46,538 nucleotides of DNA from a virus (lineage: Duplodnaviria > Caudoviricetes). Below are positions 16,201-38,459 of the stretch, in pieces. The stretch is taken from positions 1-46,538 of IMG/VR virus record IMGVR_UViG_3300034777_000158; one strand, 5' to 3'. A program made the position numbers and the translations under genes. The notes beneath the pieces were generated by a model that was not told the DNA's origin, made no database searches, and worked only from the letters and a program-made list of their open reading frames with translations. The stretch's first letter is position 1. Each line of letters begins with the position of its first letter.

Positions 16201-18043
16201 CTTCTTTATCTGCCAGCAAAAGACCTGTAGCTTCCGCTGTAGCGTAATCATCCGTAAGAGTAGTTGATAATTCACTAATCGCAGATGCAGAACTTAGGGT
16301 ATCAAGCTCCCAATAAGTACTATTTGGTGGTACCCCGTCTGTTGACGCTGCAATAGCGCGATAGAGTTTCTTACCTGAAATTACTTTGTCACCTATCTCG
16401 TAAGCAGTAGAGTCATTCCAGTCTGCGACGCCTGTCATATCGTTAAAAACAGCTGTCTCTACAGCAGTCAAAGCTGATGAGGTAGCAAAGTTGTTGTCCG
16501 CATAAGCCTGAGCATCAGAGAGCGCCGTTGCAGCGGCGCCAGCGGTCTCTTTTCCTGCAAGTAAAAGATTGGTATCAGCAGCCGTAGCGTAGTCATCAGT
16601 TAATGTTGTGGACAGATCACTAACCGCAGACGCAGAACTTAGAGTGTCAACAACCCAGTAACTTGAATTCGGTGGCTCTTCATCTGTAGATGCGTCGCTG
16701 GCGCGGTACAGCTTCTTACCTGAAATTACCTTGTCACCTATCGCATAAGTAGCGGAGCTACTCCAATCCGACACGCCAGTCATGTCGTTGAAGACCGCAG
16801 TTTCAAGACTTGTAAGATTGTTAGCTGTTGCAGCCAAACCCGTATCAGTATGGTTAACAGCGTTAGACAACGTGGTTAAAGCGCCCGCTGTAGCTGAAAG
16901 ACCAGTGGTCGGATCGGCAACGGTTGTTTGCAGCCCCTTAATCGCAACAGCAGCAGCGGAAGTGCTATCTGATGACACGTTATTAATTTCTGTAATCGCC
17001 GCGCTGTTATCAGCAGTGACACTGGCTAGACTTGTATAGTCGCCAGTAAGTTCCCAGTCGCTATTGGTACTAGCACCATCACTGTAGGTAGGTTCAGAGT
17101 CACTGTTCGCTGCATCTGCTGACCACAGTTTGTCATCGTGCCGTACCTTATCGTCGATACTGTAAGACTCAGTGCTGTCCCACGCAGCTATACCTGTAAG
17201 GTCGTTAAGCTGCGCTTGAAGCGCGTTGGCAGAACTTGTGATGGCTGTAGCTCTAGCCGTAGCCTCGTCACTAAGTGCTGTAGCTCTCGCAGAAGCCTCA
17301 CCGCTAACCGCCGTAGCTCTAGCAGCAGCCTCATTACTAACCGCCGTAGCTCTAGCAGTGGCTTCAGCAGCAACTTGGGCTGCTACAGACCCAGCAACAG
17401 TGATGTCCCCAGAGATCTTATCGATTTCTGTTTGGAGATCAGTCGCTAACTCACTTTCAGTTATTGCATCTGTTAACACACCAAGTAGGTGGTCTACATC
17501 GGCAGCTGTTGTAGCCAGCGTGCCAGTACCAGAGTTAAATGGCCCAATGATATTAGATTGCGAAACGAACCTTATCCAGTAGTAGCGAGATGCACCTGAT
17601 CCAATTGGGTCTGCATAGGCGCGACCAGAAGACACACCTATTAACTGCGCATCACCTATCGTATCTGAATCATGCCCATAGATTTCGGCGAAAGAATGGT
17701 TGCTGTAGTTCGGGTAGTCCCAGCTCAGGTTCACTTGTGAGTAAGCTGCATTAGCCTGAAAGTTTTGAGGCGCAGGTGGTTTACTAGTATCTATTACCTC
17801 ATTCGGTCCAAAACCCCTGTTGGTACTGTTCGGGTTATTAGGGTCCCACGGCGCTGCTTTAAGGTCTTTCACCAATCCTGAATCAACCAGTTCTCGAAGC
17901 GTAACAGCCCTGTCTTTAGGATCACCTCTTCGACCAAGCCGAATCTCCACAGCCTCGATCAGATTTGTGAGGAGACCTGCAGTGTTGCGGTCAACCGAAG
18001 CGGGAGGCTTAGGTATCCCTGGTACTTTGGTTGGCTTGCTCAT
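13253..18043 (-). CDS. Large tail fibre / host-specificity protein with nine CBM5/12-like modules and a DUF1983-like region
   Basis: FN3-like N-terminus, ARATA hendecad coil, repeated W....Y.IGD.V...KLY.A modules, YTVKIDSNGHVAGFGL...FYVNADRFAI. Confidence 0.85.
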   Translation of the reverse strand: MSKPTKVPGIPKPPASVDRNTAGLLTNLIEAVEIRLGRRGDPKDRAVTLRELVDSGLVKDLKAAPWDPNNPNSTNRGFGPNEVIDTSKPPAPQNFQANAAYSQVNLSWDYPNYSNHSFAEIYGHDSDTIGDAQLIGVSSGRAYADPIGSGASRYYWIRFVSQSNIIGPFNSGTGTLATTAADVDHLLGVLTDAITESELATDLQTEIDKISGDITVAGSVAAQVAAEATARATAVSNEAAARATAVSGEASARATALSDEATARATAITSSANALQAQLNDLTGIAAWDSTESYSIDDKVRHDDKLWSADAANSDSEPTYSDGASTNSDWELTGDYTSLASVTADNSAAITEINNVSSDSTSAAAVAIKGLQTTVADPTTGLSATAGALTTLSNAVNHTDTGLAATANNLTSLETAVFNDMTGVSDWSSSATYAIGDKVISGKKLYRASDASTDEEPPNSSYWVVDTLSSASAVSDLSTTLTDDYATAADTNLLLAGKETAGAAATALSDAQAYADNNFATSSALTAVETAVFNDMTGVADWNDSTAYEIGDKVISGKKLYRAIAASTDGVPPNSTYWELDTLSSASAISELSTTLTDDYATAEATGLLLADKEDSGAAAQALTDAQAYADNNFATSSQLTNLESATFGNLTGLSAYDADTTYAVGDRVTHGTGDAKKIYIATDASSASDQQAPTVPEYWDEDTIASQAVTNAALGGKETSGAAAQALQDAKTYADDNSASASEFSLLNAAVFEDVAGVDAWDSATAYAIGARVYFGRKIYRAKATSTDVEPGTDTTKWLTDPAAAASALTALDTKVNDDYTTSSDLTDLLAFKISATQSATNIAQAIENSETTAGNTYATAANLNSLESSIFADLINVSAWVGTSEGVTAVDYVAGNFVTHDGKLFKALAASTNVEPGTDAAKWEQDTLTTADQVESAYAKSSDVSVLQSNIFNSMTGVADWSATPTYAVGDRVVYTETNGVKKLYKALIANSDTTPHDNISGSTPTWSLDTLASALTVSALDTKVTNDYSTTATLTGQFSAKENAGTAAGLLESYTTTANQNTATATAVDAAYAAIFTEMTGLPDWDTTTTYAVGDRVVHRETSTANRKVYKALIANFNLTPHNNITGSNPRWELDTLAFAGALSTLDTTVNANGTGLVDKTDAIELRIDNVGDVTMEQKFTAQATDIGDLESQYTVKIDSNGHVAGFGLANTTTASGSNTSEFYVNADRFAITPDLTSAAPAFAVGNSYSTGDFVTHNGKVWMFKLVNTSTNQAASNYTVNHANLGPGGSSGSAALLWEEAGHSPFVIEANNIPATFDTDGNLLTPFIPRGVYMNTARIKHADITSAQIGSVNADTISSGSLNVTGLIETNAIEASKLSIDNNFLAENSSGELMLKTVSSNDGSGVKYENLSFDAVGVIAQGLQSGNLTMNNQSYNPSFFTSATPWSTYVQLDQYGAIQATHTLSELLPNGLNIPASSLKESGTYFIDFGAQPFGSLSNNSSTSASMIVLDILRKAPSSSTYTYVTSRRGTSTRNGSLPLTYRNGAADVYLDQSFDYKIKLFGHIKGFSDHASSSSKGMYGGFIRVFKIHKST

Positions 18044-19871: not shown

Positions 19872-20399
19872 TTAAACGTAGTAAAAGTATGGGTCTTCTC
19901 TGTACGCCTCTAAAAATTTCGAGGATGTTGCCAGATGTGACCCTACAACTTCTGGCACTATTTTATAAATTGTTACTGCGGTGCGTTGTCCAGGTATCCT
20001 CGAAACGCTGTGAGGAACAGCAGAGCAGTGGAAGTACCATTGGTTTAATTCATAAGTAACGGCCTCTGCTATTTCACTATTCGCGTCGTCTTTCCATCGA
20101 GTGACCGCCCCTGCACCGTATAGGGTGTAGTTGTAAGACCACTTTCTCAGCGCGTCTGTGTGAAAATCCGCGTAGTTGGTGTCAAAGCGCTGTATGGTGA
20201 CCACCCAATCGTCATCTATTTCAATGGGAATATTTACAATGACCCATTCGCGCAATGACCAAGGAGCTTTCAGCATCGAAAAAGGCTCTTTTTTTGATGC
20301 TGAAATGGCTCTTTCGGAAGACAAAGACCATTCTTTAAGTTCAGTAGCCATCTGGTCGGGAAAAGAAGGCCACTTTTTCTTCTTGTAATACTTACTCAT
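19872..20399 (-). CDS. Putative 2OG-Fe(II) oxygenase / cupin-fold protein
   Basis: FHTD...PHSV...R: HxD..H triad plus a distal Arg. Confidence 0.45.
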   Translation of the reverse strand: MSKYYKKKKWPSFPDQMATELKEWSLSSERAISASKKEPFSMLKAPWSLREWVIVNIPIEIDDDWVVTIQRFDTNYADFHTDALRKWSYNYTLYGAGAVTRWKDDANSEIAEAVTYELNQWYFHCSAVPHSVSRIPGQRTAVTIYKIVPEVVGSHLATSSKFLEAYREDPYFYYV

Positions 20400-21078
20400 T
20401 TAGCGGCTTTACTGAGTTGTAGAACGCTGTGTCGTTGGCAAAGTACAGCTTCATTTTTTCATAGCAGTCCGATGGCAACCAAGTTTCTGCTGGCCGCCTA
20501 AATTCTCTAGGTGTACCATTCTGATTCATCTGTATATTAGGTAAATTAATAGAGACAGTTTTTCCAAGGGTCTCACTAAGAATCTTGTTTGTAGCCGCTT
20601 CAACATCTTCAAACCTATATGCTTCAACGACTTTGTTTTCGTTGTAGTAGAAAAATTGTTCGTAGCTGAATGGCCGCTCAACACGCTGGCCAACGAACAT
20701 GCGTCCAGCAAAAGGCATCTGTGATTTCCCTCGCACCAAATTGCATATCTGAGTAAATGCATCCTCTTTTGGGTCGAGTACCTTAGTAAATCTTGCTAAA
20801 AATATACTCGATACCCACCTTTCAAATGGTTCGCGAACAAAGGCAAAGGCTCTTGACTCATTAAGCTCATCCGCACTAATCACGCCTGTTTCTACTAAAA
20901 CAGACGGCATCATGTGGTAGTCCCTTATGTTGTTAAAATCTATTGGTGAGCTAAGAGAACGAACTATGTCCGTTTCATCCGCTATCTCAGAATTTACTAG
21001 CGCGCGTTGTACAGAGTTAGATGCGGTGCGAGGGACTGCGATAAACAATAATTTGTGTTTCTTTGAAAAATACATCAA
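20392..21078 (-). CDS. Sulfotransferase family 2-like protein
   Basis: LLFIAVPRTASNSV (5'-PSB loop), FVREPFERWVS (3'-PB), YRFE, YFAND. Confidence 0.8.
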   Translation of the reverse strand: MMYFSKKHKLLFIAVPRTASNSVQRALVNSEIADETDIVRSLSSPIDFNNIRDYHMMPSVLVETGVISADELNESRAFAFVREPFERWVSSIFLARFTKVLDPKEDAFTQICNLVRGKSQMPFAGRMFVGQRVERPFSYEQFFYYNENKVVEAYRFEDVEAATNKILSETLGKTVSINLPNIQMNQNGTPREFRRPAETWLPSDCYEKMKLYFANDTAFYNSVKPLNE

Positions 21079-21653
21079 GGCGCTCCTGTGGTGTCTGCGT
21101 ACCCGTCTCTAACAAGAGCTTTGGGCGTAAGTTTGCGTATCAAGTCTTCTTGTTTAGGTCCAACAGTTTCCCCTTTCCAGCGGGCGGCGACCGTTGTAGG
21201 TGTTAAGCCATCTTTCCATTTTTGAAAAGCTAGTAGCCCAAACCCAGTGTCCAAACCGCTTTTCTCTTTAAAATTTTGTCCCGCGCCGTGACTCTCGCCT
21301 TGATACAACGTGGTTGAAGCCTCCTGTCGAGAGGTTTTTATCACGCTGCCTTCATGTGCAAGAAAAGTATCTAGGCGCATTTTTATAACTTCTACGTCTG
21401 GATGCTCGTGCCTCGGTAGGTTGGGCGAAGGGTGTATAAGATAAAGCTCGACTTGGAACTGACCATATCTAAACAAAGCAAAAGATGTAGCGTCATCGCT
21501 AAGATTAACCGTTTCGCTTGGTGGAGCTAATGGGCAGCCACTATCTGCCCACCATTTTGCAAACTCACGGACTGACTGCCATTCAGGTATCTCCACACCC
21601 TCGAGAGGGTTAGGCATCAGAAAACCGGCTGTCTTTTTCCCTAGCTTTATCAC
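21075..21653 (-). CDS. Cupin-like protein
   Basis: PRHEHPDVE...HG metal-binding pattern. Confidence 0.5.
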   Translation of the reverse strand: MIKLGKKTAGFLMPNPLEGVEIPEWQSVREFAKWWADSGCPLAPPSETVNLSDDATSFALFRYGQFQVELYLIHPSPNLPRHEHPDVEVIKMRLDTFLAHEGSVIKTSRQEASTTLYQGESHGAGQNFKEKSGLDTGFGLLAFQKWKDGLTPTTVAARWKGETVGPKQEDLIRKLTPKALVRDGYADTTGAP

Positions 21654-21655
21654 GT

Positions 21656-22015
21656 TTAGGACTCCGCTAGCAGGTCTATATCTTTTTCTACGAATGTTGC
21701 ATTATCTATTCGCTTTGCTAAGTCATCCGCATGGCCGCCCTCAAGCAATGAATCTAAAAATCTTGACCCGCCTTGTTTATCAAGCGCCCACTGTAAAATT
21801 TGTGTTTGGGTTACGGCTTCATAAGGGGTATATGTATCCGCAGATATGGCGTCTACATCTAAGTATGTTTCTATCAACCCCTTGCTTTTTATGTCAGGGT
21901 TATCCGTATCGAAAAAAGAAACCGACCAAAGAACTCTTTTTACAACATCAGTAAAAGTGTCCTGCGAAGCGATAACATATACCTCACCTAATTCCATCTC
22001 GTAATCAATATTCAT
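21656..22015 (-). CDS. Hypothetical (fibre-associated-type) protein
   Basis: DVVKRVLW...YTPYEAVTQTQILQW; ATGA coupled. Confidence 0.55.
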   Translation of the reverse strand: MNIDYEMELGEVYVIASQDTFTDVVKRVLWSVSFFDTDNPDIKSKGLIETYLDVDAISADTYTPYEAVTQTQILQWALDKQGGSRFLDSLLEGGHADDLAKRIDNATFVEKDIDLLAES

Positions 22016-22734
22016 TGTGATATTCCTATTGGTAAATTTTGAGCTAACCCTTTTCTGAGTTTTGCTGCTCGTTTAAGTGTTTTAGCGGCGACCGCTTCAA
22101 CCTTTTGTTTAGCTGACTCAGGCATACCTTCAGTAAGTCCCAAAGCAGCTTCTAATCGGTAAGCAAACATTTCGTTCCCGTTTGCCGTACCGCGTTCGTA
22201 GATAGGCACGTAGTTCATTACGGATGCCTGTTCACCTAGCATTCCGTAATCCATCGCTATCTTTGCGCTGATAGCTTTGGGAATGATCGAGTCACATTTG
22301 TGGTTCATGTGCCGCGGCATTCTTAGCCTTTTTACTTTTGCCAGAACCCCTGCATCTGTTGCCGGTGTCCGTATCCAACGTTTCGGATTTATAATAAAGA
22401 TCGATAAATCCAGAGATTTCTTATTGAGGCCGCTGCCTATCAATCCATATATATGTCTATTCGGACGGCTATCTGTAAACACGCCTTCACGGCTTACACA
22501 TATGTCGTACTGCTCAAGCAGTTCCCGTTCGGGTAGGTCACCATCTTGGATGTCCAATATGATGCCGCTCTTTACTACCAGGCAAAGCTCCTCGGAATTT
22601 CGCAAAGCTGTCGGTATATACCCACCCTGATAGGGAACGACTTTGTATTCCCAATCAGGCATATTCTGCTGAATGCTGTTAACCGTTAGCGCGGTCAGCT
22701 TGTTGCACTCGACCACTAAAATTTTTAGGCGCAA
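22012..22734 (-). CDS. Putative glycosyltransferase-like protein (divergent GT-A)
   Basis: ILVV...LTVNSI...; LSIFIINPKRW resembles the GT8 core; AGGAGG RBS before TTG 22734; no clear DxD. Confidence 0.4.
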   Translation of the reverse strand: MRLKILVVECNKLTALTVNSIQQNMPDWEYKVVPYQGGYIPTALRNSEELCLVVKSGIILDIQDGDLPERELLEQYDICVSREGVFTDSRPNRHIYGLIGSGLNKKSLDLSIFIINPKRWIRTPATDAGVLAKVKRLRMPRHMNHKCDSIIPKAISAKIAMDYGMLGEQASVMNYVPIYERGTANGNEMFAYRLEAALGLTEGMPESAKQKVEAVAAKTLKRAAKLRKGLAQNLPIGISQ

Positions 22735-23578
22735 CGTGCTCCTCCTGAAGGTATTGCTTAAAAAACCGATCAATCCGCTCGGACGGATTTTCGATACTTG
22801 CAGGGATAAGCCCTGAATCTTTACAAGATAAGATTGCCTTCAACTTGTTTTGCTGAAGCTGATCTTTATCCAGTAACGCTCTGTATATGGCGCTATAGGT
22901 ACACCACGCATCGTCCTGTCCAAACCTGTACACCGTCTTACCTTTAGCAAGTGCGGCTATGCCCATCTCGCTGTTATCGCAGCACCCGACAATAGAGGCG
23001 TTGTTAAGTATTTCCTGGCCGCTCGCTTTCTTTTCAATAACTCTGTCAGCGCCATATTTATGCATTAAATGCTCATACGCTGGTGCCGCTGTTAGGGGGT
23101 GGCACTTGAGCTTCGCCCCTTGACTCATTGCGTTGTCGATGCGTCCCCAATTAACAACTTTGTCGAGGATGTTTGTCCCAGGTAAAAAGATAACGAAGTC
23201 TTCTTTTATACCCTTGGCCCTAAGCCTGTACTTGTCGCCACTGTTGTCCGCTATCTCTCTAAACAAGCGCTCGCCTTCTTCAGTGATATCTGCCTTAGCG
23301 GCTTTTTGCATGGCAGCGGATGCCCTGATACGGCTAGCAACGCGCAGGTATAGAAACTGAGCCAGCACGTCTGTATACACATACCCGTGGATACGCTTAT
23401 CTTCACCAAAGTCATACCAAATGTCGTACTCAACTTTCGTACCGTTGGTCGATTTATCTGGCATCAAGGACTTCAACTGCGTCAGGCGGTCGTTGTCTTT
23501 GCTACGTAACACGTTCCCAGATTTAAAAAAGTGAGCTACTGGATTACCCAGTTCCTCGTTATCCGCTAGCTTCTTCAA
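22679..23578 (-). CDS. Capsule polysaccharide biosynthesis (KpsC/KpsS-like) GT-B protein
   Basis: LKCHP...ILNNASIVGCCDNSEMGIAALAKGKTVYRFG fits the KxHP...NS.G.EAL..GK.V...G pattern. Confidence 0.6.
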   Translation of the reverse strand: MKKLADNEELGNPVAHFFKSGNVLRSKDNDRLTQLKSLMPDKSTNGTKVEYDIWYDFGEDKRIHGYVYTDVLAQFLYLRVASRIRASAAMQKAAKADITEEGERLFREIADNSGDKYRLRAKGIKEDFVIFLPGTNILDKVVNWGRIDNAMSQGAKLKCHPLTAAPAYEHLMHKYGADRVIEKKASGQEILNNASIVGCCDNSEMGIAALAKGKTVYRFGQDDAWCTYSAIYRALLDKDQLQQNKLKAILSCKDSGLIPASIENPSERIDRFFKQYLQEEHVAPKNFSGRVQQADRANG

Positions 23579-23702
23579 GTGCTCTCCTAAGTCTTTCCAC
23601 CTCGTCCTCGAGGTTCGTGATTCGATCTTCTGTTTCGCTAAAATGCTCCATAATTACTTCAAGAGCGTTTTCTAGTTTTCCGTTAATATCCGAAAAGTTC
23701 AT
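23559..23702 (-). CDS. 47-aa coiled-coil protein
   Basis: MNFSDINGKLENALEVIMEHFSETEDRITNLEDEVERLRRALEEASG; TAATG-coupled to the Thr-rich gene. Confidence 0.6.
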   Translation of the reverse strand: MNFSDINGKLENALEVIMEHFSETEDRITNLEDEVERLRRALEEASG

Positions 23703-26700
23703 TAGTCTTCCGTCCATTGCGAACCGTCCCAATAACGACCGTTATGCGCGCTGCCGCTAGTTACTTCGGTTTGGTTTCCAGTAGCTGTAAGGCGCTCGTA
23801 AACAACCGTCGATGTGTTTCTGTTAGTCGTTGTTGCTCTACTAGTGCCCGTTAGGTGGTTAGTAGAACGGTTAGTTGTTGTGTCGAACGAAGTCGTGAAT
23901 GCAGTAGTCGTCGCGCGGTTTGTGTTCGTATTGAACGCAGTCGTATAGCTAGTAGTCGTTGCGTTGCTGGTATTTGTGTTAAACGCGGTAGTCGTAGATT
24001 TACTTGTGCCATGCGATGTACCAGTAGCATACGCAGTAGTCGTAGACTTACTTGTGCCATGTGACGTACCAGTGGCATACGTAGTAGTTGTGCCTCTGCT
24101 AGTTCCGTGTGAAGTACCAGTCGCATACGTAGTAGTTGTACCTCTGCTAGTACCGCGAGATGTACCAGTAGCAGTCAGATATGCAGTAGTCGTGGACTTG
24201 CTAGTACCGTGTGAAGTGCCAGTGGCATAGGTAGTAGTCGTGGACTTGCTAGTACCGTGTGAAGTGCCAGTCGCAGTCAGATATCCAGTAGTCGTGGACT
24301 TACTAGTACCATGCGACGTGCCAGTTGCAGTCAGATACGAGGTGGTTGTAGATTTACTGGTGCCTCTACTAGTGTTTGTATTAAATGCAGTCGTGTAGGC
24401 AGTAGTAGTAGCTTTGCTAGTGTTTGTATTAAACGCCGTAGTGAATGCAGTCGTAGTCGCTCTGCTGGTGTTTGTATTAAACGCTGTAGTCGTTGACTTG
24501 CTAGTTCCACGCGACGTGCCAGTTGCAAACGCCGTAGTAGTGCCTCTGCTAGTGCCGTGCGACGTGCCGGTTGCAAACGCGGTAGTGGTGGACTTACTAG
24601 TACCATGCGAGGTACCAAACGTAGTCGTATATGCAGTAGTCGTAGACTTGCTCGTGCCATGACTTGTGTTCGTGTTGAACGCAGTAGTTGTGCCTCTGCT
24701 CGTGCCGTGAGATGTACCAAACGTAGTCGTATACGCAGTAGTCGTTGACTTACTAGTACCACGGCTTGTATTTGTATTAAACGCTGTGGTCGTTGAATGG
24801 CTAGTACCACGGCTAGTGTTGGTGTTAAACGCGGTAGTCGTAGACTTGCTAGTGCCGTGCGAAGTGTTGTAGCCAGTCGTGTATGACGTGGTCGTAGACT
24901 TGCTAGTGCCATGAGACGTGTTATAGCTAGTCGTGTATGACGTGGTCGTAGATTTACTGGTGCCATGCGACGTGTTGTAGCTAGTCGTATAACTAGTAGT
25001 TGTTGCCTTGCTCGTACCGCGGAAAGTACCAACTGCAGTCGCCGCCATGTAAGCAGTTATCGTATCGTTCGACGTTTCGTAAGTGGTGGTGTAGCTGGTC
25101 GTGGTTGATTTCGAAGTCGTCCGTGAATAAGAAGCTGGTTGGCCTCTGTAAATGCCGTAATTAAAATTTGTAAAAGTGCCTGCGTACTGATCGTACCCAG
25201 TGGACGTAGAGACTAGGGTGCCTCTGTAATAAGTCCATCCACTTTCAGTGTATGACGTAGCGTTTTCCGACCAACCGTCAACACCAGAGAGGGAAACAAG
25301 TGACCCACTCCAATAAACATAAGCACCGAATAGGCTCTTTTGCCAGAGTTCCGAAAAAGGGTAACTAGTATCGGCGTACTGCCCAGAGCTAGGCTGACGA
25401 TTGTTTATCTGAGACCAGCTAGTGGTATACGAGGTCGTTGTAGACTTACTAGTGCCACGCGACGCGTTGTAGCTGGTAGACGTCCAACGAATTTTCTGCG
25501 TATCTCGGCTTGTGTTGTAGTTCGTTGTGAAATGAGTAGTCGTTGACTTGCTAGTACCGTGACTAGTCCCATAAGTTGTTGTGTAACTAGTCGTAGTCGC
25601 TTTACTTGTGCCGTGAGAGGTTCCATACGTTGTCGTGTAACTGGTCGTAGTCGCTTTACTTGTGCCGTGGCTCGTTCCGTACGTCGTCGTGTAACTAGTC
25701 GTAGTCGCTCTGGACGTACCAGTAGCAAACGTTGTTGTGTAACTGGTCGTAGTCGCCCTGGATGTGCCGGTAGCAAAAGTCGTGGTGTAACTAGTAGTAG
25801 TGGCGTGAGACGTCCCACGGCTTGTGTTGTAGCTAGTCGTGTAAGCAGTAGTTGTCGCTCTGGACGTGCCAGTGGCGTAAGTCGTCGTATAACTAGTAGT
25901 AGTGCCGTGTGACGTTCCGCGGCTGGTATTGTAAGCCGTGGTGTAGGCAGTAGTTGTCGCGCGGCTGGTAGTGGTGTCGTAAGCCGTGGTGTAGGCAGTA
26001 GTTGTCCCACGGCTGGTCGTGGTATTGAAAGCCGTAGTGTAACTGGTCGTAGTTGCCTTCGACGTACCAGTAGCAAAAGTTGTCGTAGTAGAACGGCTGG
26101 TTCCTCGAGAGGTACCAGTAGCAAAAGTTGTCGTCGTAGAGTGACTTGTTCCGCGAGAAGTGCCAGTAGCAAACGTTGTCGTATAGCTAGTTGTAGTAGC
26201 GTGCGACGTGCCTTTTGTTGTGTCGTATGCCGTGGTGTAGGCAGTAGTTGTCGCGTGCGACGTGCCTTTTGTCGTGTTGTACGACGTAGTGTAACTAGTT
26301 GTTGTCGCGTGATTTGTATTAGTGTTGTACGACGTAGTGTAACTAGTTGTAGTAGCGTGCGACGTACCTTTTGTCGTGTTGTACGAAGTAGTGTAGCTAG
26401 TTGTAGTAGCGTGGTTGGTGTTCGTGTTGTACGACGTAGTAAAGCTAGTCGTCGTCGCGTGGTTTGTATTTGTGTTATACGACGTAGTGTAGCTAGTTGT
26501 AGTAGCGTGATTAGTAGTAGTGTCGTACGCAGTAGTGTAGCTAGTAGTAGTTGCTCTAGAAGTACCAGTTGCAAAAGTTGTAGTAGTAGAGTGGCTAGTA
26601 CCACGAGAAGTGCCAGTAGCAAAAGTTGTGGTAGTTGAGCGGCTAGTACCACGGGAAGTGCCCGTCGCGAACGCAGTGTTATACGTAGTCGTTGTGTTAA

Positions 26701-26890
26701 ACGCTGTGGTAGTAGAGAACGCTGTAGTAGTACTACGACTTGTGCCGTAGACCGCGTTCCATACAGTTGCCAGCGTACCGTTGTTATTAGCCACTACATA
26801 GTTAACGCCGTAAAGCGTACCCAGGTCTCCTTTTACAAAGATCTGAGCAGGCTCTTTTAGGGTGCCACTGTCGTTAACTTTAATAGTCAT
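23702..26890 (-). CDS. Thr/Ser-rich mirror-repeat fibre protein
   Basis: Long open frame of even-length TTT-anchored repeats around a unique central domain; likely start MTIKV at 26890. Confidence 0.85.
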   Translation of the reverse strand: MTIKVNDSGTLKEPAQIFVKGDLGTLYGVNYVVANNNGTLATVWNAVYGTSRSTTTAFSTTTAFNTTTTYNTAFATGTSRGTSRSTTTTFATGTSRGTSHSTTTTFATGTSRATTTSYTTAYDTTTNHATTTSYTTSYNTNTNHATTTSFTTSYNTNTNHATTTSYTTSYNTTKGTSHATTTSYTTSYNTNTNHATTTSYTTSYNTTKGTSHATTTAYTTAYDTTKGTSHATTTSYTTTFATGTSRGTSHSTTTTFATGTSRGTSRSTTTTFATGTSKATTTSYTTAFNTTTSRGTTTAYTTAYDTTTSRATTTAYTTAYNTSRGTSHGTTTSYTTTYATGTSRATTTAYTTSYNTSRGTSHATTTSYTTTFATGTSRATTTSYTTTFATGTSRATTTSYTTTYGTSHGTSKATTTSYTTTYGTSHGTSKATTTSYTTTYGTSHGTSKSTTTHFTTNYNTSRDTQKIRWTSTSYNASRGTSKSTTTSYTTSWSQINNRQPSSGQYADTSYPFSELWQKSLFGAYVYWSGSLVSLSGVDGWSENATSYTESGWTYYRGTLVSTSTGYDQYAGTFTNFNYGIYRGQPASYSRTTSKSTTTSYTTTYETSNDTITAYMAATAVGTFRGTSKATTTSYTTSYNTSHGTSKSTTTSYTTSYNTSHGTSKSTTTSYTTGYNTSHGTSKSTTTAFNTNTSRGTSHSTTTAFNTNTSRGTSKSTTTAYTTTFGTSHGTSRGTTTAFNTNTSHGTSKSTTTAYTTTFGTSHGTSKSTTTAFATGTSHGTSRGTTTAFATGTSRGTSKSTTTAFNTNTSRATTTAFTTAFNTNTSKATTTAYTTAFNTNTSRGTSKSTTTSYLTATGTSHGTSKSTTTGYLTATGTSHGTSKSTTTTYATGTSHGTSKSTTTAYLTATGTSRGTSRGTTTTYATGTSHGTSRGTTTTYATGTSHGTSKSTTTAYATGTSHGTSKSTTTAFNTNTSNATTTSYTTAFNTNTNRATTTAFTTSFDTTTNRSTNHLTGTSRATTTNRNTSTVVYERLTATGNQTEVTSGSAHNGRYWDGSQWTED
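23852..25105 (-). repeat. C-terminal repeat arm (24 units, 418 aa), mirror of the N arm
   Basis: Unit lengths 34,18,18,18,16,16,18,16,18,16,16,12,16,20,18,18,16,18,16,16,16,12,16,20. Confidence 0.9.
25442..26695 (-). repeat. N-terminal repeat arm (24 units, 418 aa)
   Basis: Unit lengths 20,16,12,16,16,16,18,16,18,18,20,16,12,16,16,18,16,18,16,16,18,18,18,34. Confidence 0.9.
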
Positions 26891-26898
26891 GGCTGGCC

Positions 26899-28761
26899 CT
26901 AACTCACTACATACCAAACGTGTCCGTTAGGGAAACCGGAAGCACTCGTGGGTGCTGTTGTGACGACAGACTGTGTGCCGACTTTCTTTGTATCTGCCAA
27001 AGTCGTCGAGCCAGCGTATATATCTCCCTTGACTACAAGGGCAAGAGTTCCGGTTGTCGGGTACTGACTATTGCCAGACGCAGCGTCTAGGACTAGACCA
27101 TAACCAGCGACAGGTAACTCGCTATCAAATTCGTTGTGGTAAAGACTTACGCCTTGGTTGTTAGTCGTGGTGAAATTTATCTTTGGGAACGAGCCGGTGC
27201 TGCTATTAGTATCATATAAAGTTATTTCTGGGCTGGTCTTGTTTATTGCAAGATTACCAGTCAGCGTACCACCAGCCAGCGGGAGCTTAGTTGCAATACT
27301 GTTTGTTACGGTGGTCGAGAAGTTAGCATCATCGCCTAACGCAGCTGCTAATTCGTTCAGCGTGTCTAAGGTGCTAGGAGATGAATCGACAAGGTTGCTA
27401 ATCTGAGTTCCAACGTAAGACTCAGTGGCGTAGCCAGACAGAGACTGGTGGCTAGTTAAATACCCCCCACTCGAGTGGTCACCCCAGCCATAGGCTGTAT
27501 TCCAGTTAGCGGAGTTGTCAGTGAACGGCAAGGAATAGTTGTTCGCGCTTGCGGCTATGCCATCTAGTTTAGTCTTCAGCGTGGTGGTGAAGTTCTTCTG
27601 AGTTAAACCACCGTCTTCCACGGAGTAGGTGGTATCTGTAAACACAGCATTCCCTGGTACATCTGTTAGAACCTGGGAGTCGTCTACTTTACCGTCTAGG
27701 GCGGTTTGGAGTCCTGTTATAAAACTAATTGTGTGCGCAGAGGGATGACTATAGTTATTTGCACTTGTGGCAATGCTATCCAGTTTAGTCTTTAGCGTAG
27801 TCGTAAAGTTCTTCTGAGTTAAACCACCATCACCTACTGAGTAGGTGGTGTTTGTGTCGGTAGAACTGATGGTTCCGTCAGCAGCTATAGCTACATTAGT
27901 ACCAGCGGTTAATGCCGCTACTACATTTGCTGTATCAGTAACATCAGCGCTAGCCTCGATACCATCCAGTTTGGTTTTAAGCGTAGTCGTAAAGTTCTTC
28001 TGAGTTAAGCCACCATCTTCCACGGAGTAGGTGGTGTTCGTATCAGTTGAGCTAATTGTTCCGTTGGCCGCTATAGCCACGTTAGTACCGGCAGTTAACG
28101 CTGCGACCACATTTGCTGTATCAGTTACATCGGCGCTAGCCTCTACGCCATCCAGTTTAGTCTTTAGCGTTGCAGTGAAGTTCTTCTCAGTAAGCCCACC
28201 GTCCTCCACCGAGTAGGTGGTGTTGTTGTCAGTAAAAACTGCATTCGCTGGCACATCCGTCAGAACCTGGGAGTCGTCTACTTTACCGTCTAACGCAGTT
28301 TGAAGCCCTGTTATAAAACTAATTGCGTGCGCAGACGGATGGCTGTAGTTATTTGCACTAGCCTCGATACCGTCCAGTTTAGTCTTTAGCGTTGCAGTGA
28401 AGTTCTTCTCAGTAAGCCCACCGTCCTCCACCGAGTAGGTAGTGTCCGTATCAGTATCCGCCTGGGTGGCAACATCGTTTAAACCGCCAGCAGTCAAGCG
28501 ATTCTCAGCTTTGTCACCCGCAGCAAAAGAGATACCCGAAGTTCCGTCTTGCGCGCGGACAGCCGTCAGTGTATTCGAGCTTACCGAGGTGACTTTTAGT
28601 ATCTCCACACTACCGCTGACATTTTCCAGCGTCATGTAGAAGTATTCACTGCCTGTTATAGACGGAAATACAGAAGCGTCTGCTACAACAATTGATGTAG
28701 CAGAGCTCGATACTCCAGACGACAACGTGGTCTTGCCGTTGTTGGAAAACTTAACGGACAT
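26899..28761 (-). CDS. Tail fibre protein with modular repeats
   Basis: Five TTYSVEDGGLT.KNFT.TLKTKLD repeats; LVDSSPSTLDTLNELAAALGDDANF fibre motif. Confidence 0.8.
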   Translation of the reverse strand: MSVKFSNNGKTTLSSGVSSSATSIVVADASVFPSITGSEYFYMTLENVSGSVEILKVTSVSSNTLTAVRAQDGTSGISFAAGDKAENRLTAGGLNDVATQADTDTDTTYSVEDGGLTEKNFTATLKTKLDGIEASANNYSHPSAHAISFITGLQTALDGKVDDSQVLTDVPANAVFTDNNTTYSVEDGGLTEKNFTATLKTKLDGVEASADVTDTANVVAALTAGTNVAIAANGTISSTDTNTTYSVEDGGLTQKNFTTTLKTKLDGIEASADVTDTANVVAALTAGTNVAIAADGTISSTDTNTTYSVGDGGLTQKNFTTTLKTKLDSIATSANNYSHPSAHTISFITGLQTALDGKVDDSQVLTDVPGNAVFTDTTYSVEDGGLTQKNFTTTLKTKLDGIAASANNYSLPFTDNSANWNTAYGWGDHSSGGYLTSHQSLSGYATESYVGTQISNLVDSSPSTLDTLNELAAALGDDANFSTTVTNSIATKLPLAGGTLTGNLAINKTSPEITLYDTNSSTGSFPKINFTTTNNQGVSLYHNEFDSELPVAGYGLVLDAASGNSQYPTTGTLALVVKGDIYAGSTTLADTKKVGTQSVVTTAPTSASGFPNGHVWYVVS

Positions 28762-29211: not shown

Positions 29212-30849
29212 CTAGGAATTAAGGGTATAAGTGTTAAATGCTGAGGTATTCAGCGTTGACGAAGCGGTGTTAATAATTGAAAAGCTAAAATTCTCACTAA
29301 TAACAAAAGAGTCTTGTTCGGATTTACTAAGTGAGAATTCTTGGGTGTCGCTGATTGCAACTGCATCAGTCAGCTGTTTGGCGACAGAGAAATTTTGAAC
29401 GTCGTTAAAGCTAAAGACGTTAGCTTTGTTGGCTGCTGTGTCTTTAGCAAAAGCGTCGACAGTAGCTGCGTCGTCCAATGAAAACGAATCTGTAAACGCC
29501 CTGCTAAATGTCGCTGCGCGAGAAAATTGGTCTGATACAGAAATTGATTCACTCACTGGTTTTGAAGTAAGCAGCGATGCCGACTCACTAATCGCAATAG
29601 AGTCAGATTTGCTCAGCGCTAAGACAGCTGTCATAAGATCAGACAGTGATACCGTTTCTGCTACATTCTTGCTTACCAAAGATGTGGTTGAGTCAGAAAT
29701 CGCGTAGGTGTCGCTCGCTGGTTTTTGCGTATGTAAAGAGGCTGTCTCGATCAATTGAAGTGCATCGGACAGTTCTTTGCCTACCAGGAAGGCTTGCGTG
29801 TCAGTCAAGCCTACTATGTTTGACTTGATGGCTGCTGTGTCTTTAGTAAATGCATCGACGGTAGCAGCGTCGTCCAGAGTGAAGGTATCACCAAACGCCC
29901 TGACGTATGTGACTGCGCGAGCTAGCACCTCTGTCATAGAGACAGAGTCACTCTCAGCTTTCGAAGTGTTTAACGCAGCCGACTCAGAAATAGATATTGA
30001 GTCAGATTTCCCTAAGTCTGCTGCAACTGCTGCAATATCGCTGAAAGACACTGCTTCAGAAACGCCCTTATCAACCGAAGCAGACGTTGAGTCAGACAAC
30101 GCGTAAGAATCGCTCGCTGGTTTTTGCGTATGTAAAGAGGTCGTCTCGACTAGGGACAGCGCTTCAACAAACGCTTTGCTCATTGTAAATGCTTGCGTAT
30201 CGGTAAAGCTAAAGACATTCACTTTGTTAGAATCAGTATCTTTAGTAAACGCGTCAACCGTAGCTGCATCGTCTAGCGAGAATTGGTCTGAAAATGCTCT
30301 GGCGTACGTGACTGCGCGCGCCAACACATCTGAAATAGATACCGAGTCGCTCTCAGCTTTTGCGGTGCTCAGAGTAGCTAACTCAGTAATAGCGAATGAG
30401 TCACTCTTGGTAATGGCCAAAGCCATCTCTACTACTTCAGATAAAGAAACAGAGTCAGATACACTCTTATCAAAAGACAGAACAGTGACATCAGACAACG
30501 CATATGCATCATCTAGCGAGCGTTGTATTAATAGAGCAACGACTATCTCATCAGAAAAAGAGACGGCGTCTGCGAGTGCTTTCTGTACTTCCAGGATCTG
30601 ACTGTCAGAGAACGAGAACGCATCTAAGGTAGTCTTCTCGAACCCAACCGATAGTACTTCTGACAGGCTTATCGTGTCATCGCGTAGATATCTGTTTAGG
30701 CTATCTGGGTCCAAAGCGATCTGGGCGGCAACTACATCTTGCCAGCTGATATCACCCTCGATGAACTGATACGCGGATTCTGCGTCGATCTTTACAAAAG
30801 ACGCCTCCGACTTAATATCGAGGTAAGTGAAACCAGACTTTGTAGCCAT
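29212..30849 (-). CDS. Ser/Asp-rich 19-aa-repeat structural protein
   Basis: K..SDS.S.S. units with three higher-order copies of RAF.D.F.LDDAATVDAF.KDT. Confidence 0.65.
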   Translation of the reverse strand: MATKSGFTYLDIKSEASFVKIDAESAYQFIEGDISWQDVVAAQIALDPDSLNRYLRDDTISLSEVLSVGFEKTTLDAFSFSDSQILEVQKALADAVSFSDEIVVALLIQRSLDDAYALSDVTVLSFDKSVSDSVSLSEVVEMALAITKSDSFAITELATLSTAKAESDSVSISDVLARAVTYARAFSDQFSLDDAATVDAFTKDTDSNKVNVFSFTDTQAFTMSKAFVEALSLVETTSLHTQKPASDSYALSDSTSASVDKGVSEAVSFSDIAAVAADLGKSDSISISESAALNTSKAESDSVSMTEVLARAVTYVRAFGDTFTLDDAATVDAFTKDTAAIKSNIVGLTDTQAFLVGKELSDALQLIETASLHTQKPASDTYAISDSTTSLVSKNVAETVSLSDLMTAVLALSKSDSIAISESASLLTSKPVSESISVSDQFSRAATFSRAFTDSFSLDDAATVDAFAKDTAANKANVFSFNDVQNFSVAKQLTDAVAISDTQEFSLSKSEQDSFVISENFSFSIINTASSTLNTSAFNTYTLNS

Positions 30850-32294: not shown

Positions 32295-35200
32295 CTAGTA
32301 AACTAAGCTATAGCCAGGGATCAGACGGTCAGGCACGATCTCCCAACCTTCGCCTCGATACAGTCCCATACCAATATCATCAACAATAAAGCCTGCGGTA
32401 GGACCAAATAGAGAGATACCCGTGCCACCGTACTTCTCTGCATTTAAGGCGCTGCTGAATATGGACAGCGGTCCTTGGAAGCCAGCTCGGTCAAATATCT
32501 CAGATGTGTAGGTGCCAATGTCCATTCGATCTGACCTGAAGTAACGCGCGTCTGCGCTTACGCCAGGAAGTGCGCCAGCTATACCAGCTTTTGCAAGTTC
32601 ACGAAGTTCTAGCGAGAACATAGCCAGTGGCATGAATGCGGCAGCTGACAGCAGTCCCATCATTCCGATGCTGCTCATGGCTTGGAACTTAGTGTCTGAC
32701 TCGCCATAACGGGTAACCATCTCGCGTGCTATTCCACCCATGATTACTTTACCGAACGAGTAGAGGTAGCTTTTAAGAGCCCAAACAAGCGCGAACCGCG
32801 GGTCGTTACCATAGGCTGTTCGCTCTGCGGCATTCGGACGGAGCATTGAATTCTCTACAAACCTACGTAAAGCTGCTTTTACAGCTTCGCCTTCTGGTCC
32901 TTGGAAGTTGTAGTGCTCGCCTTCGACCTGATTGCTCTCCCACTTACGAACTGTTGCCGCATCAACTCCATGCATACTGAGATACCGCTCTGATCGAGGG
33001 TTCTTAGTATCTGGAGATGCATGGTTCTTGAGAAACTCAACCGCCATACCTGATGCAAACTCTCGTGTAAATCTAGTAAAGAAGTCGAGACCAATAGCCT
33101 TAAAGAACTTATCGGAGTATTTACGGACTCTGGGGTCAAGGTACTCATCATCCGCTTGCGTCAGGCCGAGGTTACCCATGGCCGTTGATACCGTAACGCC
33201 AATACTTCTGGCTAGCTGGACGCCTTGTTCCCGATTGTTTAACTGCTTTTTAATTGCTTCGAGAGACATCCCGAAACCATTAAACTCCCTAGTGTTCAAG
33301 ATTGCGCCACCCATCTCAGGTATGGAGCTAATTGTCGCTAGCGGCAGCAGAGTCACCCAGTTAAACAACTGGAAGTAGCTGTTTACTTTCTGGAGCTTTG
33401 GATTTAGAGGTGTCTTGGTATAACCAAGATATCGCTCGATCATGTCTGTGACTTTTTGTCGATCGGCAGCGTTCAACTTATTTAGTTCAGGCTCTAATAG
33501 ATCCTTACCATCGATGTTACGAGTGTGCCGCAAGAACTCATTACGTATTACTTGGTGGCGTACGTATCGAATCAACGCTACTTCAGGAGACTCAGTAAAC
33601 TTCCTGAGCGCTTGTGGAGGGACATTCTCAGTAAGTATTCTCGCCTCTTCAACAACCTTCAGCGGGTTGGTGGCATCAAACTCAATCTCACCATCTGCCA
33701 GGATGTGGGCGCGCTGGGCAACTAACCCATCGACAGTCTTTCGTATGCTCGCTTCGTTTGCCTCGGGGTTCCACTGAAGAATAGTTTGGATGAATTCTTC
33801 TGGCGCACCGTAGATACCTGCGAGGTCCAAAGCGATAGGCCAGTAGTTTTCTCGGAAACCAACCTCGTTGCCTGGAGACTGTGAGATGTAATCTTCATGT
33901 AGTTTGGTAAACCAGTCACGAAGTTCGCGTCCCTTACCTTCCATCGTCGCTGTTTCGGCATCGGAAGAAGCTAAGTCGAGAGCATCTCTTACTTCTTGAG
34001 TTTCCCAGTCTGTGCCAAGGATATCCTCGAGGTCGTTAAGCAGTTCATTACGCTTGTCATTCTTAGCATTCAAGAAACCTAAAGCGCTGCCCTTATTTGT
34101 GCTGCCTGCCTGTACGTAGAACATGTCAGCAATTTTAGGGCTGATGGCGCGCATCATATTGTCTTCAGCAAGAATCCACTTAGTCAGCTCGCGCGACTTG
34201 TTGCCGAACATTATCTTCTGGAAAAGGTTTGTGGATTTCTCAGCCCCTTCCTTCTGCTTATCAGACATCGCCGCTTCCATGTCGCGCACCAGTTTTTTGG
34301 TGTAGAAGGGTACGTTGCTGACAGAGCCGTCTCGTTCGCTGTTTCTTCTGTGCTTCTGGACAACGTTGTCCATGAAGTCGTCAAACTTAGGTGAAAATTC
34401 GTTATTGCTAAATCGCTTGCGCAGTTCGCCGCGTACGGCTTTCCACATCTGCTCTAGCTTGCCTGCTATCTTACCGAACGTGCGTTGAATGATTCCGCGA
34501 GGCTGTGCCCGCGCGTCTTTCCTGGCTAAATCTCGTTTAGACCATATAGCGACTTGATCAGCAAACCACTCTTCGAAAGCTAGATTCTCTTCGCCTCGAT
34601 ACGCCTCGGGAGCGTCTTTATCGGCTCTAGCCCTTTCGAAAGCTCTCCACATGTACTGACGAAGCATAGGGTTCTCAAGAATCCCGTCTTTCTCTTCTTG
34701 GAATAAAACGTGACCTAGCTCGTGAGAAGCAACCAAAGCCTGTTGTAGTTCGTTGCCTTTGGTGTTGTCTATCAAGATCATATGGGCATTACGGTAGCCC
34801 ATGTAGTGACCGAAGGCTGTTGGGCGACCCTTCATGCGCTCTGCCTGACGTTTTACATCAGCTATCACCGCTGGGTGATCAAACATCTCGCGCAGTTCTA
34901 CATCTGTCTTCGCCAATATTTCTTTGACGCCCATAATCGCGACAGGCTTGCTAGGACGTATAACGCGCATAGCACGGCCTATAGCCTGACTTACTGTGTC
35001 GCTCAACGCACCGACTGGGTAAGTAGCTGTTGCTGCACCTACCTTTTTACCTGCACCAGGCTGAGGTCTTGGGGCGCGGCGCGGTAGCGCACTTCTGCGA
35101 TCCATCTGGAATTTGGGGTTGCTCTCCAGGTTCAATGTTGTCATTGGCACGCCGTCATACAAGCGTTTGCCAGTGTCAGGATCTATGTTGTAGTCGCCTT

Positions 35201-38200: not shown

Positions 38201-38459
38201 CTGCTTGCTTGAGTGATTCTTGGACGCCTTCGTCGTCGCCCATCAGCGTACTGGCAATAGCACCAAAGTAGTTGCCACTAGCACGCATGCCAGAGACACC
38301 GGCTTCGAGACCGCGGCCAAATAACTCAGCGTTGCTTCTTGTCGGATCGCGCTCTGTCAGTACTTCAGGGGTTATGCCTTTGTTTGTTGCTGCATATTCA
38401 TCAGCTTCAAAAAAACTCTGAATTAAAGAGTCGGCTGTGCCCTCCATCGGATTGGACAT
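32295..38459 (-). CDS. Giant internal virion / DNA-ejection polyvalent protein with NADAR-like and zincin domains
   Basis: 2054 aa; Gly/Ala-rich N-terminus; LSNL...TVEHAYQ..K; HELGH...EEWFAD. Confidence 0.75.
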   Translation of the reverse strand: MSNPMEGTADSLIQSFFEADEYAATNKGITPEVLTERDPTRSNAELFGRGLEAGVSGMRASGNYFGAIASTLMGDDEGVQESLKQAERHDREAADALSGLQTFEGFLEAPTFESGIEQFMIAGGQGIPSLATTITASIATGGTAMLTGMLGRGVIDVGRKAAVKKVIKNSADKVADGTADAAERELVEGIYGGLKNLNFKSGAIAGGLAAGFVPLSGENLSEGIESGREVDTDLAIRSLFVAAPQAALELASPAAMLKNFSKVAAKTADASDGILSTLLKETLAGAGKGFATEAITEAGQETISVLNRADMDPNFEFEDGYMRIAQAAFQGGVAGKIAGGAGGAMAGSAKAANSIFDQAKQRVEDSQEQRIADEIEEEGNQPPPSENAPYEPTTEERADIESVKDQDEFSQLQMDYYDNYGGPEEPVKRDMETGDKKITLQAQFREKAATAFESLAAKNPNDQRIQNLATRYVAGNQSVRDGILSTMFGPQRDEQYIDPSTTDGATDEQISEFFQAEGYQEATQEYPVTENAVKADPTRVFPNTEESRDAYEKAFGDTDFTDPTYAYMTEAFLRQAASTKQEFGDVDLQVDRDLLGKPTAYRLTRTDFKRDEQAPNKEFVEDELKLAMNSTFADGSGAEIVLPTGEVAPINLVNLTDSGRRLLQKRGDLTFQGGAQQQMARKGLPEFLSELKQIDPAYDILVNGVSLYGVNNGPLGPQIPARTETMTAGGETFTRGAKNDKENPTGAMVNGEEIPLTEVLQPPSEDTSRSRAFVLTYPDETKGEFKTEYKRYDDLRSAKQAAARAKADGRSAEAFLKPKGPVYVVTGKRLVKQPIKREPPVNVFYGSGENASLSNLAARPFAYGERDYLTVEHAYQTLKGGSFDQKTYDAYNRLPDATGKKIAGPRAVTKDNANITLMEELMKASFEQNADAAKALTDTGQAGITHTQDRGVWKKEFPRILTDIRKSLRPSEGTRGSSTQVKSGDAPAPQSGPASNAQESMGRQQAIAQYNADSLRMEQDRAKQEFSNEQSEQKTFFNPEEADAYAARLKNEFGFDNVKVEEVGMQLEPKSESDPDAVTGDETGLQQGDYNIDPDTGKRLYDGVPMTTLNLESNPKFQMDRRSALPRRAPRPQPGAGKKVGAATATYPVGALSDTVSQAIGRAMRVIRPSKPVAIMGVKEILAKTDVELREMFDHPAVIADVKRQAERMKGRPTAFGHYMGYRNAHMILIDNTKGNELQQALVASHELGHVLFQEEKDGILENPMLRQYMWRAFERARADKDAPEAYRGEENLAFEEWFADQVAIWSKRDLARKDARAQPRGIIQRTFGKIAGKLEQMWKAVRGELRKRFSNNEFSPKFDDFMDNVVQKHRRNSERDGSVSNVPFYTKKLVRDMEAAMSDKQKEGAEKSTNLFQKIMFGNKSRELTKWILAEDNMMRAISPKIADMFYVQAGSTNKGSALGFLNAKNDKRNELLNDLEDILGTDWETQEVRDALDLASSDAETATMEGKGRELRDWFTKLHEDYISQSPGNEVGFRENYWPIALDLAGIYGAPEEFIQTILQWNPEANEASIRKTVDGLVAQRAHILADGEIEFDATNPLKVVEEARILTENVPPQALRKFTESPEVALIRYVRHQVIRNEFLRHTRNIDGKDLLEPELNKLNAADRQKVTDMIERYLGYTKTPLNPKLQKVNSYFQLFNWVTLLPLATISSIPEMGGAILNTREFNGFGMSLEAIKKQLNNREQGVQLARSIGVTVSTAMGNLGLTQADDEYLDPRVRKYSDKFFKAIGLDFFTRFTREFASGMAVEFLKNHASPDTKNPRSERYLSMHGVDAATVRKWESNQVEGEHYNFQGPEGEAVKAALRRFVENSMLRPNAAERTAYGNDPRFALVWALKSYLYSFGKVIMGGIAREMVTRYGESDTKFQAMSSIGMMGLLSAAAFMPLAMFSLELRELAKAGIAGALPGVSADARYFRSDRMDIGTYTSEIFDRAGFQGPLSIFSSALNAEKYGGTGISLFGPTAGFIVDDIGMGLYRGEGWEIVPDRLIPGYSLVY

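Follow-up and report, generated by a model that had tools for sequence, protein, structure and literature searches.

A mirror-coded protein with a predicted fold-back stalk, encoded behind phage tail-fibre genes

How a phage protein could carry two arms that mirror each other, and what fold such an order might specify, is the question raised by a gene lying directly behind the 620-aa tail-fibre gene of a virus record. The window (the whole stretch of 46,538 nucleotides that was analysed, IMGVR_UViG_3300034777_000158) is a 46.5-kb virus record, 79% complete according to CheckV, which is represented in seawater metagenome runs; no RNA dataset was found among the listed runs containing its DNA. 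As it encodes DNA polymerase A, a primase, a helicase, an integrase and two SU10-type adaptors, with a capsid protein closest to that of Pseudomonas phage KPP25/phiR18 (~52%), the source of the window is likely a temperate marine podophage. The features discussed below are collected in Table 1. Contigs from run X12, a run that is not flagged as a possible source, cover most of the mirror gene piecewise with zero differences; contigs from X15 and X16 skip 48 bases at a 39-base repeat, where other runs are split into separate contigs, and this skip may be an assembly collapse or a real unpaired loss.

Table 1. Coordinates of the mirror gene, its parts and its neighbours in the window
Feature	Position	Strand	Basis and remarks
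Mirror-coded fibre/adhesin gene (putative), 1062 aa from ATG	23702..26890	-	37% Thr, no Cys
Head, aa 1-47; three beta-hairpin-like repeats, period 14-15; putative docking cap	26750..26890	-	Self-similarity
N arm of stem, aa 54-493	25412..26731	-	Gap-free alignment to reversed C arm
Tip domain, aa 494-588; beta-structured, variable, located at the turn; likely binds the receptor	25127..25411	-	Divergence, RL2RES_228 profile match, AlphaFold fold in homologues
C arm of stem, aa 589-1028	23807..25126	-	Gap-free antiparallel register
Conserved tail, aa 1029-1062; YWDG.QW hairpin motif at end	23705..23806	-	Invariant alignment columns
Upstream tail-fibre gene, 620 aa, ending in TT.P....G.VWYVV; putative trimeric carrier	26899..28761	-	PHROG tail fibre E=1.4e-71
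Acidic ORF of 47 aa, coiled-coil-like, immediately downstream of the mirror gene; possible chaperone	23559..23702	-	Similar short ORF or tblastn match behind the gene in homologous loci
KpsC/Capsule_synth-like glycosyltransferase-type gene, 299 aa	22679..23578	-	Profile match to PDB KpsC 8fuw; 39/41 loci
Second conserved downstream gene, 253 aa; glycosyltransferase-like by eye only	22012..22773	-	Neighbour kept in most loci

Mirror register and pairing code of the protein

The original prediction was that, when the protein is cut at each unit-opening TTT, the unit lengths of the C arm are those of the N arm in reverse. This was reproduced in full: the N arm (aa 66-483) gives the series 20,16,12,16,16,16,18,16,18,18,20,16,12,16,16,18,16,18,16,16,18,18,18,34, and the C arm (aa 596-1013) gives its exact reverse. 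The probability of such a mirrored order arising by chance is ~1e-11; restricted to the inner 22 units, it is 3e-9. The proposed arms of 418 aa are indeed mirrored, but the pairing extends beyond them, aa 54-493 aligning with aa 1028-589 over 440 rungs without a gap.

When all antiparallel registers were scanned, the best one (i+j=1082) brought together 78 aromatic:basic pairs, compared to 41 at the runner-up; mutual information was lower in parallel registers (0.82, vs 1.37 antiparallel). The opposite class is faced by 78 of the 87 aromatic or basic residues of the N arm and by 78 of the 79 in the C arm, in keeping with the claim that partner units are complementary, and permuting the unit order of the C arm left only 29.7±5.3 such pairs (maximum 54 in 2000 permutations). 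The pair of units offered as an example proved exact (the unit at 380 with the unit at 684; Y5-H15, F9-R11, R15-F5), whereas the matching of TTKG with YLTATG units needs refining, the Lys of all three TTKG units facing Thr and not an aromatic residue. Thr, aromatic and basic residues lie on one face as expected, even positions being nearly all T/Y/F/R/K/H and odd positions mostly S/T/A/G/N; 130 of the 220 coded-face rungs are Thr:Thr. The protein contains nine Trp residues, with almost none in the stem.

At the DNA level, no inverted repeat of at least 16 bases was found and identical units diverge at 4-11 of 48-51 bases; the mirror is therefore confined to the protein level, and a DNA palindrome as its source was ruled out. 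Searches of Pfam, PHROG and NCBIfam yielded no real family for the protein, the ser_rich_anae_1 match being far below cut-off. There was also no match in a protein search with region 440-640, in a PDB sequence search with profile A1, or in a tblastn search of GenBank phages with the head, two tips and the short homologue P0066, and the atlas returned only viral clusters without a name, below 0.9. In the mostly open-access literature covered, no description of such a protein was found.

Register, arm length and strand geometry across homologues

A scan of viral contigs produced 61 loci, from which 41 distinct complete proteins of 325-1781 aa were retained after removal of fragments, duplicates and the frameshifted L057. 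For each of these the register was predicted from the termini alone, using the head Trp and the tail Tyr/Phe as anchors and an offset taken from the window protein, which as the source of the offset was left out of the test. Of 121 registers compared, the terminal-anchored one came out on top in 39 of the 41 homologues; the exceptions were L017, which has 20 unpaired residues, and L061, whose register drifts beyond residue 207. In L060 and L059 the predicted register is still top-ranked, but it shifts by 22 and 44, respectively, further out. L060 differs from L058 only in that its C arm has lost 66 bases at a 23-base repeat; this loss is either an assembly collapse or a tolerated bulge. A second set comprised 29 proteins (28 found by head profile, plus P0012), of which 13 lacked the C-terminal motif and one an anchor; in the 15 that were tested, all complete and one second-set protein being identical to L051, the predicted register was strictly first in 13 and tied in 2. 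A 1028-aa protein reached solely via the downstream gene had a mirror score of 313, compared to 33.5±3.6. The score was not significant for a 116-aa protein of Cr30, P0034, P0051, pieces of the DLP6 fibre and three other window proteins.

It had also been predicted that every repeat gain or loss in one arm must be matched in the other. Equal gains were indeed found in close relatives (L052/L042, +40/+40 at 93% DNA identity; L005/L011, +28/+28; L032/L039, +134/+134), but the rule does not hold strictly, as L017 (20), L060 (22) and L059 (44) each carry one unpaired block and L061 drifts. The 19 pairs aligned at the DNA level comprised six with exactly equal non-zero gains, two with no stem indel, three that were near-equal and eight that were unequal; five of these eight join proteins that are each gap-free, with gaps that spill around exchanged tips. 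Paired gains may have arisen stepwise via tolerated bulges, for which L060, L017 and L059 are candidate states, or by double cross-overs swapping the tip together with both distal arms.

On the coded face of the 41 pooled stems, Phe:Arg, Tyr:Lys, Tyr:His and Thr:Thr pairs are enriched, and aromatic:Thr and basic:Thr pairs are nearly absent. In L045 and the L036 group a turn of 6-8 residues replaces the tip domain. Taken together, the data clearly show that the mirror is real, well beyond chance, conserved, and not accounted for by any family tested. Since the register is kept by relatives of widely differing length, the chain likely folds back into a two-stranded stalk, and that it folds back on itself is, as judged from sequence, very probable.

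A further regularity concerns the spacing of successive long-residue rungs. In the window protein, basic-to-aromatic rungs occur at four-residue spacing in 0 of 23 cases, whereas the remaining kinds of transition, three in number, do so in 36 of 52. The share of basic-to-aromatic steps at this spacing was lower in 20 of 20 representatives, which owing to kinship do not amount to 20 independent trials, and in the pooled data it was 21 of 226, against 56-63% for the other kinds. This rule was first seen in the ladder of the window protein, then reasoned out and then tested. In a right-twisted hairpin, as described in passages of PMC10096425, i:j-2 is the diagonal pair at non-hydrogen-bonded sites (peptide residues 2 and 9). 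By this geometry residues i and j-4 would meet over the intervening Thr:Thr rung, and cations would be juxtaposed only in basic-to-aromatic steps. The spacing rule thus supports true cross-strand stacking in a twisted ribbon whose coded face would lie at non-hydrogen-bonded sites. The opposite face holds large residues at 12 of 428 positions in the window protein; a face so nearly free of them would suit the buried interior of a barrel as well as a lone ribbon.

The original prediction of a fold-back antiparallel beta-ribbon is therefore supported at the sequence level by the register in 39 of 41 homologues, the equal gains, the short turns and the direction-specific spacing rule. The length of ~140 nm given for it is retained as an upper bound (~140-145 nm) for a flat ribbon only: with a rise of 0.33 nm for each rung, a flat stem would reach at most 145 nm in the window and, in the family as a whole, 25-280 nm; coiling would shorten it.

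Ends, tip and neighbouring genes

The mirror gene is a separate gene directly behind a fibre gene in all 41 loci, and in all 41 the upstream gene, which varies in length from 76 to more than 700 aa, ends in the same motif. As collagen repeats precede this motif in 4 of 34 distinct ends, the upstream carrier is presumed to be trimeric. The head displays a three-fold repeat (self-similarity of 0.51 in 24 heads, vs -0.44±0.06 in shuffles), and the tail has invariant columns in alignment A4, with a weak DUF2510 match below cut-off (E=0.003). The three-fold head and the conserved upstream end suggest a single-copy adhesin that would cap the trimer. Counting against a single copy, a hairpin repeat of 14-15 residues is also the unit of homotrimeric beta-spirals.

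The tip differs markedly from the ends: in six close relatives it retained 30-37 identities in 60-81 aligned residues, compared to 89-96% identity in the head and 94-100% in the tail. In AlphaFold models of two short homologues the tip is folded at a pLDDT of ~75-95 and the stem is below ~50; in that of P0066, low-confidence strands at 118-130 and 209-221 correspond to segments paired by the register (341). The best BFVD match of both models (E=0.003-0.006) was a protein of Rhizobium phage RL2RES labelled gp38-like (RL2RES_230). A profile of 42 tips run against 1130 ORFs, drawn from 150 kb of the RL2RES genome, detected RL2RES_228 with E=1.1e-8, while RL2RES_230 reached E=0.1; pairwise and profile comparisons of the tip with RL2RES_230 were not significant. 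Both proteins belong to phrog_10745, and RL2RES_230 has a sub-threshold Pfam GP38 match. RL2RES_228 is 21% Gly and lies behind a tail-fibre gene. By eye, it starts with three hairpin repeats and the preceding fibre ends in a similar Pro/Gly/Trp motif; neither the head profile nor the upstream-end profile picked up these look-alike motifs of RL2RES_228/229. We read the tip as one mobile adhesin domain, for which either the mirror stalk or a polyglycine scaffold would serve as carrier. PDB fold searches with the low-confidence AlphaFold models gave a best Z of only 3.0-3.2.

Downstream, a KpsC-like gene was matched in 39 of the 41 loci, the remaining two having less than 200 bases of flank. The assignment is putative: the profile of the 299-aa gene matches KpsC 8fuw with E=0.0046 over 75 positions, Capsule_synth is found in 13% of the members of its atlas cluster, and the homologue in the Caulobacter phage DCM matches Capsule_synth below cut-off (E=0.0016). 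The 253-aa gene that follows had no match in Pfam, PHROG or NCBIfam. Because KpsC-like homologues were also found in DLP6, Cr30 and KVP40, where the proteins tested or listed included no mirror neighbour, the link between the two genes is not exclusive. That these neighbours glycosylate the Ser/Thr-rich stalk is a speculative suggestion.

Tracing the KpsC-like gene led to cultured Caulobacter podophages, in which a mirror gene follows a T7-type tail fibre gene. The mirror score was 33.5 for DCM gp043 (WCA46238.1; 16.2±1.8, maximum 21.2, in 100 shuffles) and 44.5 for Lullwater gp041 (ATI16348.1; vs 16.4±2.2); both genes lie between the tail-fibre gene and a KpsC-like homologue, and near-identical copies of gp043 are present in BL198, BL199 and ERS. 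Like the window protein, the two products are Thr-rich with a significant mirror register under the family pair scores; unlike it, they are of ~215 aa and have different ends, with no such tip seen, and they are annotated as hypothetical. In the passages covered of a paper dealing with these phages (PMC11053796), the protein is not discussed.

A proposed fold-back adhesin and its alternatives

The mechanism proposed here builds on the register and pairing code, both conserved, on the order of the genes and on a tip domain common to the mirror protein and a gp38-like protein. The protein would be the distal adhesin of a tail fibre, a single chain that docks by its head, zips back on itself and displays a tip, and to this reading we assign a probability of roughly 0.6. 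The three-hairpin head of one chain would dock on the end of the upstream-encoded trimeric fibre; the chain would run outward as one beta-strand, fold the receptor-binding tip and zip back along itself, bringing the tail back to the base, next to the head. One face would alternate Thr:Thr rungs with aromatic:Arg/Lys/His rungs at non-hydrogen-bonded sites, and the right-handed twist would stack the long side chains over the intervening Thr rungs to form an unbroken cation-pi ladder, which would substitute for a hydrophobic core and set the register; small residues would form the opposite face. Stalk length would be tuned by matched repeat gains and tips would be swapped between phages. We are confident, to a degree just short of that for the fold-back itself, that the mirror protein forms a fibre of the virion and binds a receptor by its tip, gene context being what points to the virion; that one copy caps the trimer is a moderately favoured part of the reading.

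A fold-back hairpin in each chain is known from the trimeric needle of T4 gp37, which was reportedly described by Bartual et al. in 2010 as a six-stranded fold-back barrel. At the level of sequence the mirror protein appears to share with it a chain that runs out and back antiparallel, a receptor-binding tip at the turn and a place in the distal part of the fibre. T4 gp37 (needle domains D10/D11) is a homotrimer with seven His-bound irons, as stated in passages of PMC6957217, and has a needle region of ~230 residues, whereas the window protein has 440 rungs, is Thr-rich, carries an aromatic:basic mirror code and belongs to a family with a five-fold range of length; its length and pairing code set it apart. 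With gp38 adhesins (T2/T6/S16 type, PF05268), which are monomers according to excerpts of PMC12032242, it shares a separate gene behind the fibre gene and a variable, putatively host-facing part, and with RL2RES_228 (phrog_10745) the tip domain and, by eye, the three-fold hairpin start; unlike gp38 it has no beta-helix and no polyglycine sandwich, the tip being placed on a self-complementary stalk, and neither a GP38 Pfam match nor glycine runs were found in its sequence. The thrombospondin type 1 repeat, as outlined in part of PMC2173040, is likewise a thin antiparallel fold with a core of stacked aromatic and Arg residues from neighbouring strands. That repeat is a short, three-stranded, disulfide-capped Trp/Arg domain, whereas the mirror protein combines Tyr/Phe with Arg/Lys/His, has no Cys, draws either class from either strand and has ~80 such rungs in one run; no Pfam match to the repeat was found in it. 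The mirror protein thus lacks defining features of each of the three.

The same hairpin and register might also be used by three (or two) chains that pack their small faces into a six-stranded antiparallel barrel or sandwich with the ladder outside, like an extended T4 gp37 needle. The strict smallness of one face and the presumed trimeric carrier would fit such a barrel, phage receptor-binding proteins are mostly trimeric according to sections of PMC12032242, and small-face volumes anti-correlate at slide -2 in 19 of 20 representatives, a post hoc hint of a second register. However, volume complementarity of the small face was not found at the main register (it was negative in 11 of 20 representatives), inspection of the arm sequences revealed no His-x-His iron motif, the His residues of the window protein facing Tyr across the register, the tip domain is shared with a protein of gp38-like type, and three head repeats fit a one-on-three cap; we regard the barrel as the main rival, though a less likely one. 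Intra- and inter-chain pairing being indistinguishable from sequence, the code might instead act between molecules, with one chain's N arm pairing with another's C arm in domain-swapped dimers or a polymer. This is improbable, as equal arms anchored at the termini and turns of 6-8 residues are most simply intramolecular, and in the model of P0066 the strands, at low confidence, flank the tip at register-paired segments.

Of still lower probability is a genuine hairpin that is not a virion adhesin, such as a buoyancy head fibre or a polyanion-binding filament: the strong positive charge of the stem (+51, from Lys/Arg) would suit it, but in all 41 loci the gene immediately follows a fibre-type gene whose end is conserved, in the Caulobacter podophages the mirror gene comes after the T7-type tail fibre gene, and the variable tip is common to a tail-fibre-associated gp38-like protein. 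The low stem pLDDT, the Thr/Ser-rich composition and the glycosyltransferase-like neighbours could alternatively indicate a disordered or solenoid, mucin-like glycosylated stalk without arm pairing, in which the mirror is a by-product of repeat turnover. This is the explanation to which we give the least credence, since there is no DNA inverted repeat, partners are complementary rather than similar, permutation and shuffle controls fall well short of the observed pairing, the register is held across the five-fold length range, and the stems are almost free of Pro.

In its fullest form the proposal, of a fold-back adhesin, would describe a monomeric 'beta double helix' of 100-280 nm with a reverse-complement side-chain code and a handedness rule, capping a trimeric fibre and possibly glycosylated, which would serve as a length-tunable stalk for an exchangeable adhesin, with short versions in Caulobacter phages; for this whole we see about an even chance. 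If true, it would provide a natural protein whose self-pairing resembles that of a nucleic-acid hairpin, with register kept over hundreds of residues by a simple side-chain code, and a two-stranded ribbon that far exceeds known hairpins and is stable without a conventional core. It would also offer a design rule for programmable beta-filaments, and pose an evolutionary puzzle in the paired gain of repeats far apart within one gene. The short versions in cultured Caulobacter phages make the model directly testable. For the phages themselves, it would represent a new means of extending their reach, with the host-binding tip held far from the virion.

A contig skip in the C arm and variation among family members

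Within window 24184-24233, which lies in the C arm of the mirror fibre, 48 bases corresponding to one C-arm unit were absent from the contigs of two runs belonging to different studies. This skip sits at a 39-base repeat.

The homologue at L061 (6001-8784) and the proteins P0072-P0074 form a divergent subfamily whose three-fold head is very regular. In the L061 protein, pairing was observed up to approximately residue 220 and drifted beyond it, across Asn/Thr-rich repeats with Cys. P0073 represents a minimal form of 165 aa comprising the head, a short Thr-rich part and the tail. The homologue at L057:5238-9618 is split into two overlapping frames of 556 and 991 aa, through either an assembly error or a genuine frameshift, and was excluded from the homologue counts. 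Three further Thr-rich proteins (P0027, P0048 and P0007) carry N-termini of other kinds, that of P0007 being baseplate-like by eye; in P0027 and P0048 the mirror signal (one antiparallel register scoring above shuffled sequences) barely exceeded that of their own shuffles, with a register step of 2 residues.

Related proteins in cultured phages

Short mirror-coded proteins were found in two cultured Caulobacter podophages (Table). The long fibre-like ORF of Stenotrophomonas phage DLP6 displayed no mirror code in the mirror-score test; it appears to cross the terminal repeat and to end in a Hint-like domain, the latter as judged by eye. Downstream of it, as at the mirror locus, lie the short coiled-coil ORF and the cassette of two genes (a KpsC-like gene and a second conserved gene). 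In Rhizobium phage RL2RES, the products of genes 228 and 230, each preceded by a fibre-type gene, contain an inserted beta domain resembling the mirror-fibre tip; relatives of these proteins are present in other Rhizobium phages.

Table. Positions of the features discussed
Feature	Position	Strand	Remarks
DCM short mirror-coded Thr-rich protein	L075:6330-6983		annotated hypothetical
Lullwater short mirror-coded Thr-rich protein	L079:2533-3180		annotated hypothetical
DLP6 long fibre-like ORF	L078:11894-14490 and L074:1-1655		unannotated; appears to span terminal repeat
RL2RES gene 228	L082:27810-28829	-	glycine-rich, gp38-like
RL2RES gene 230	L082:30362-31507	-	glycine-rich, gp38-like
1596-aa tail protein	window 13253-18043	-	matches to CBM5/12 (carbohydrate-binding) and Phage_Tail_Tip
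Sulfotransferase-family gene and two small proteins	window 19872-22015	-	small proteins: weak dioxygenase-like matches
545-aa acidic Ser/Asp-rich repeat protein	window 29212-30849	-	upstream of mirror gene
2054-aa internal-virion-type protein	window 32295-38459	-	weak NADAR and Peptidase_M78 matches

Other genes of the window

The 545-aa Ser/Asp-rich protein, kept in many related loci, was not mirror-coded when its mirror score was tested. The sulfotransferase-family gene and its two small neighbors, which come after the glycosyltransferase-like pair and were found again in related loci, possibly constitute a virion-modification cluster. Because of its domain matches, the 1596-aa tail protein is a candidate for a second receptor-binding protein.
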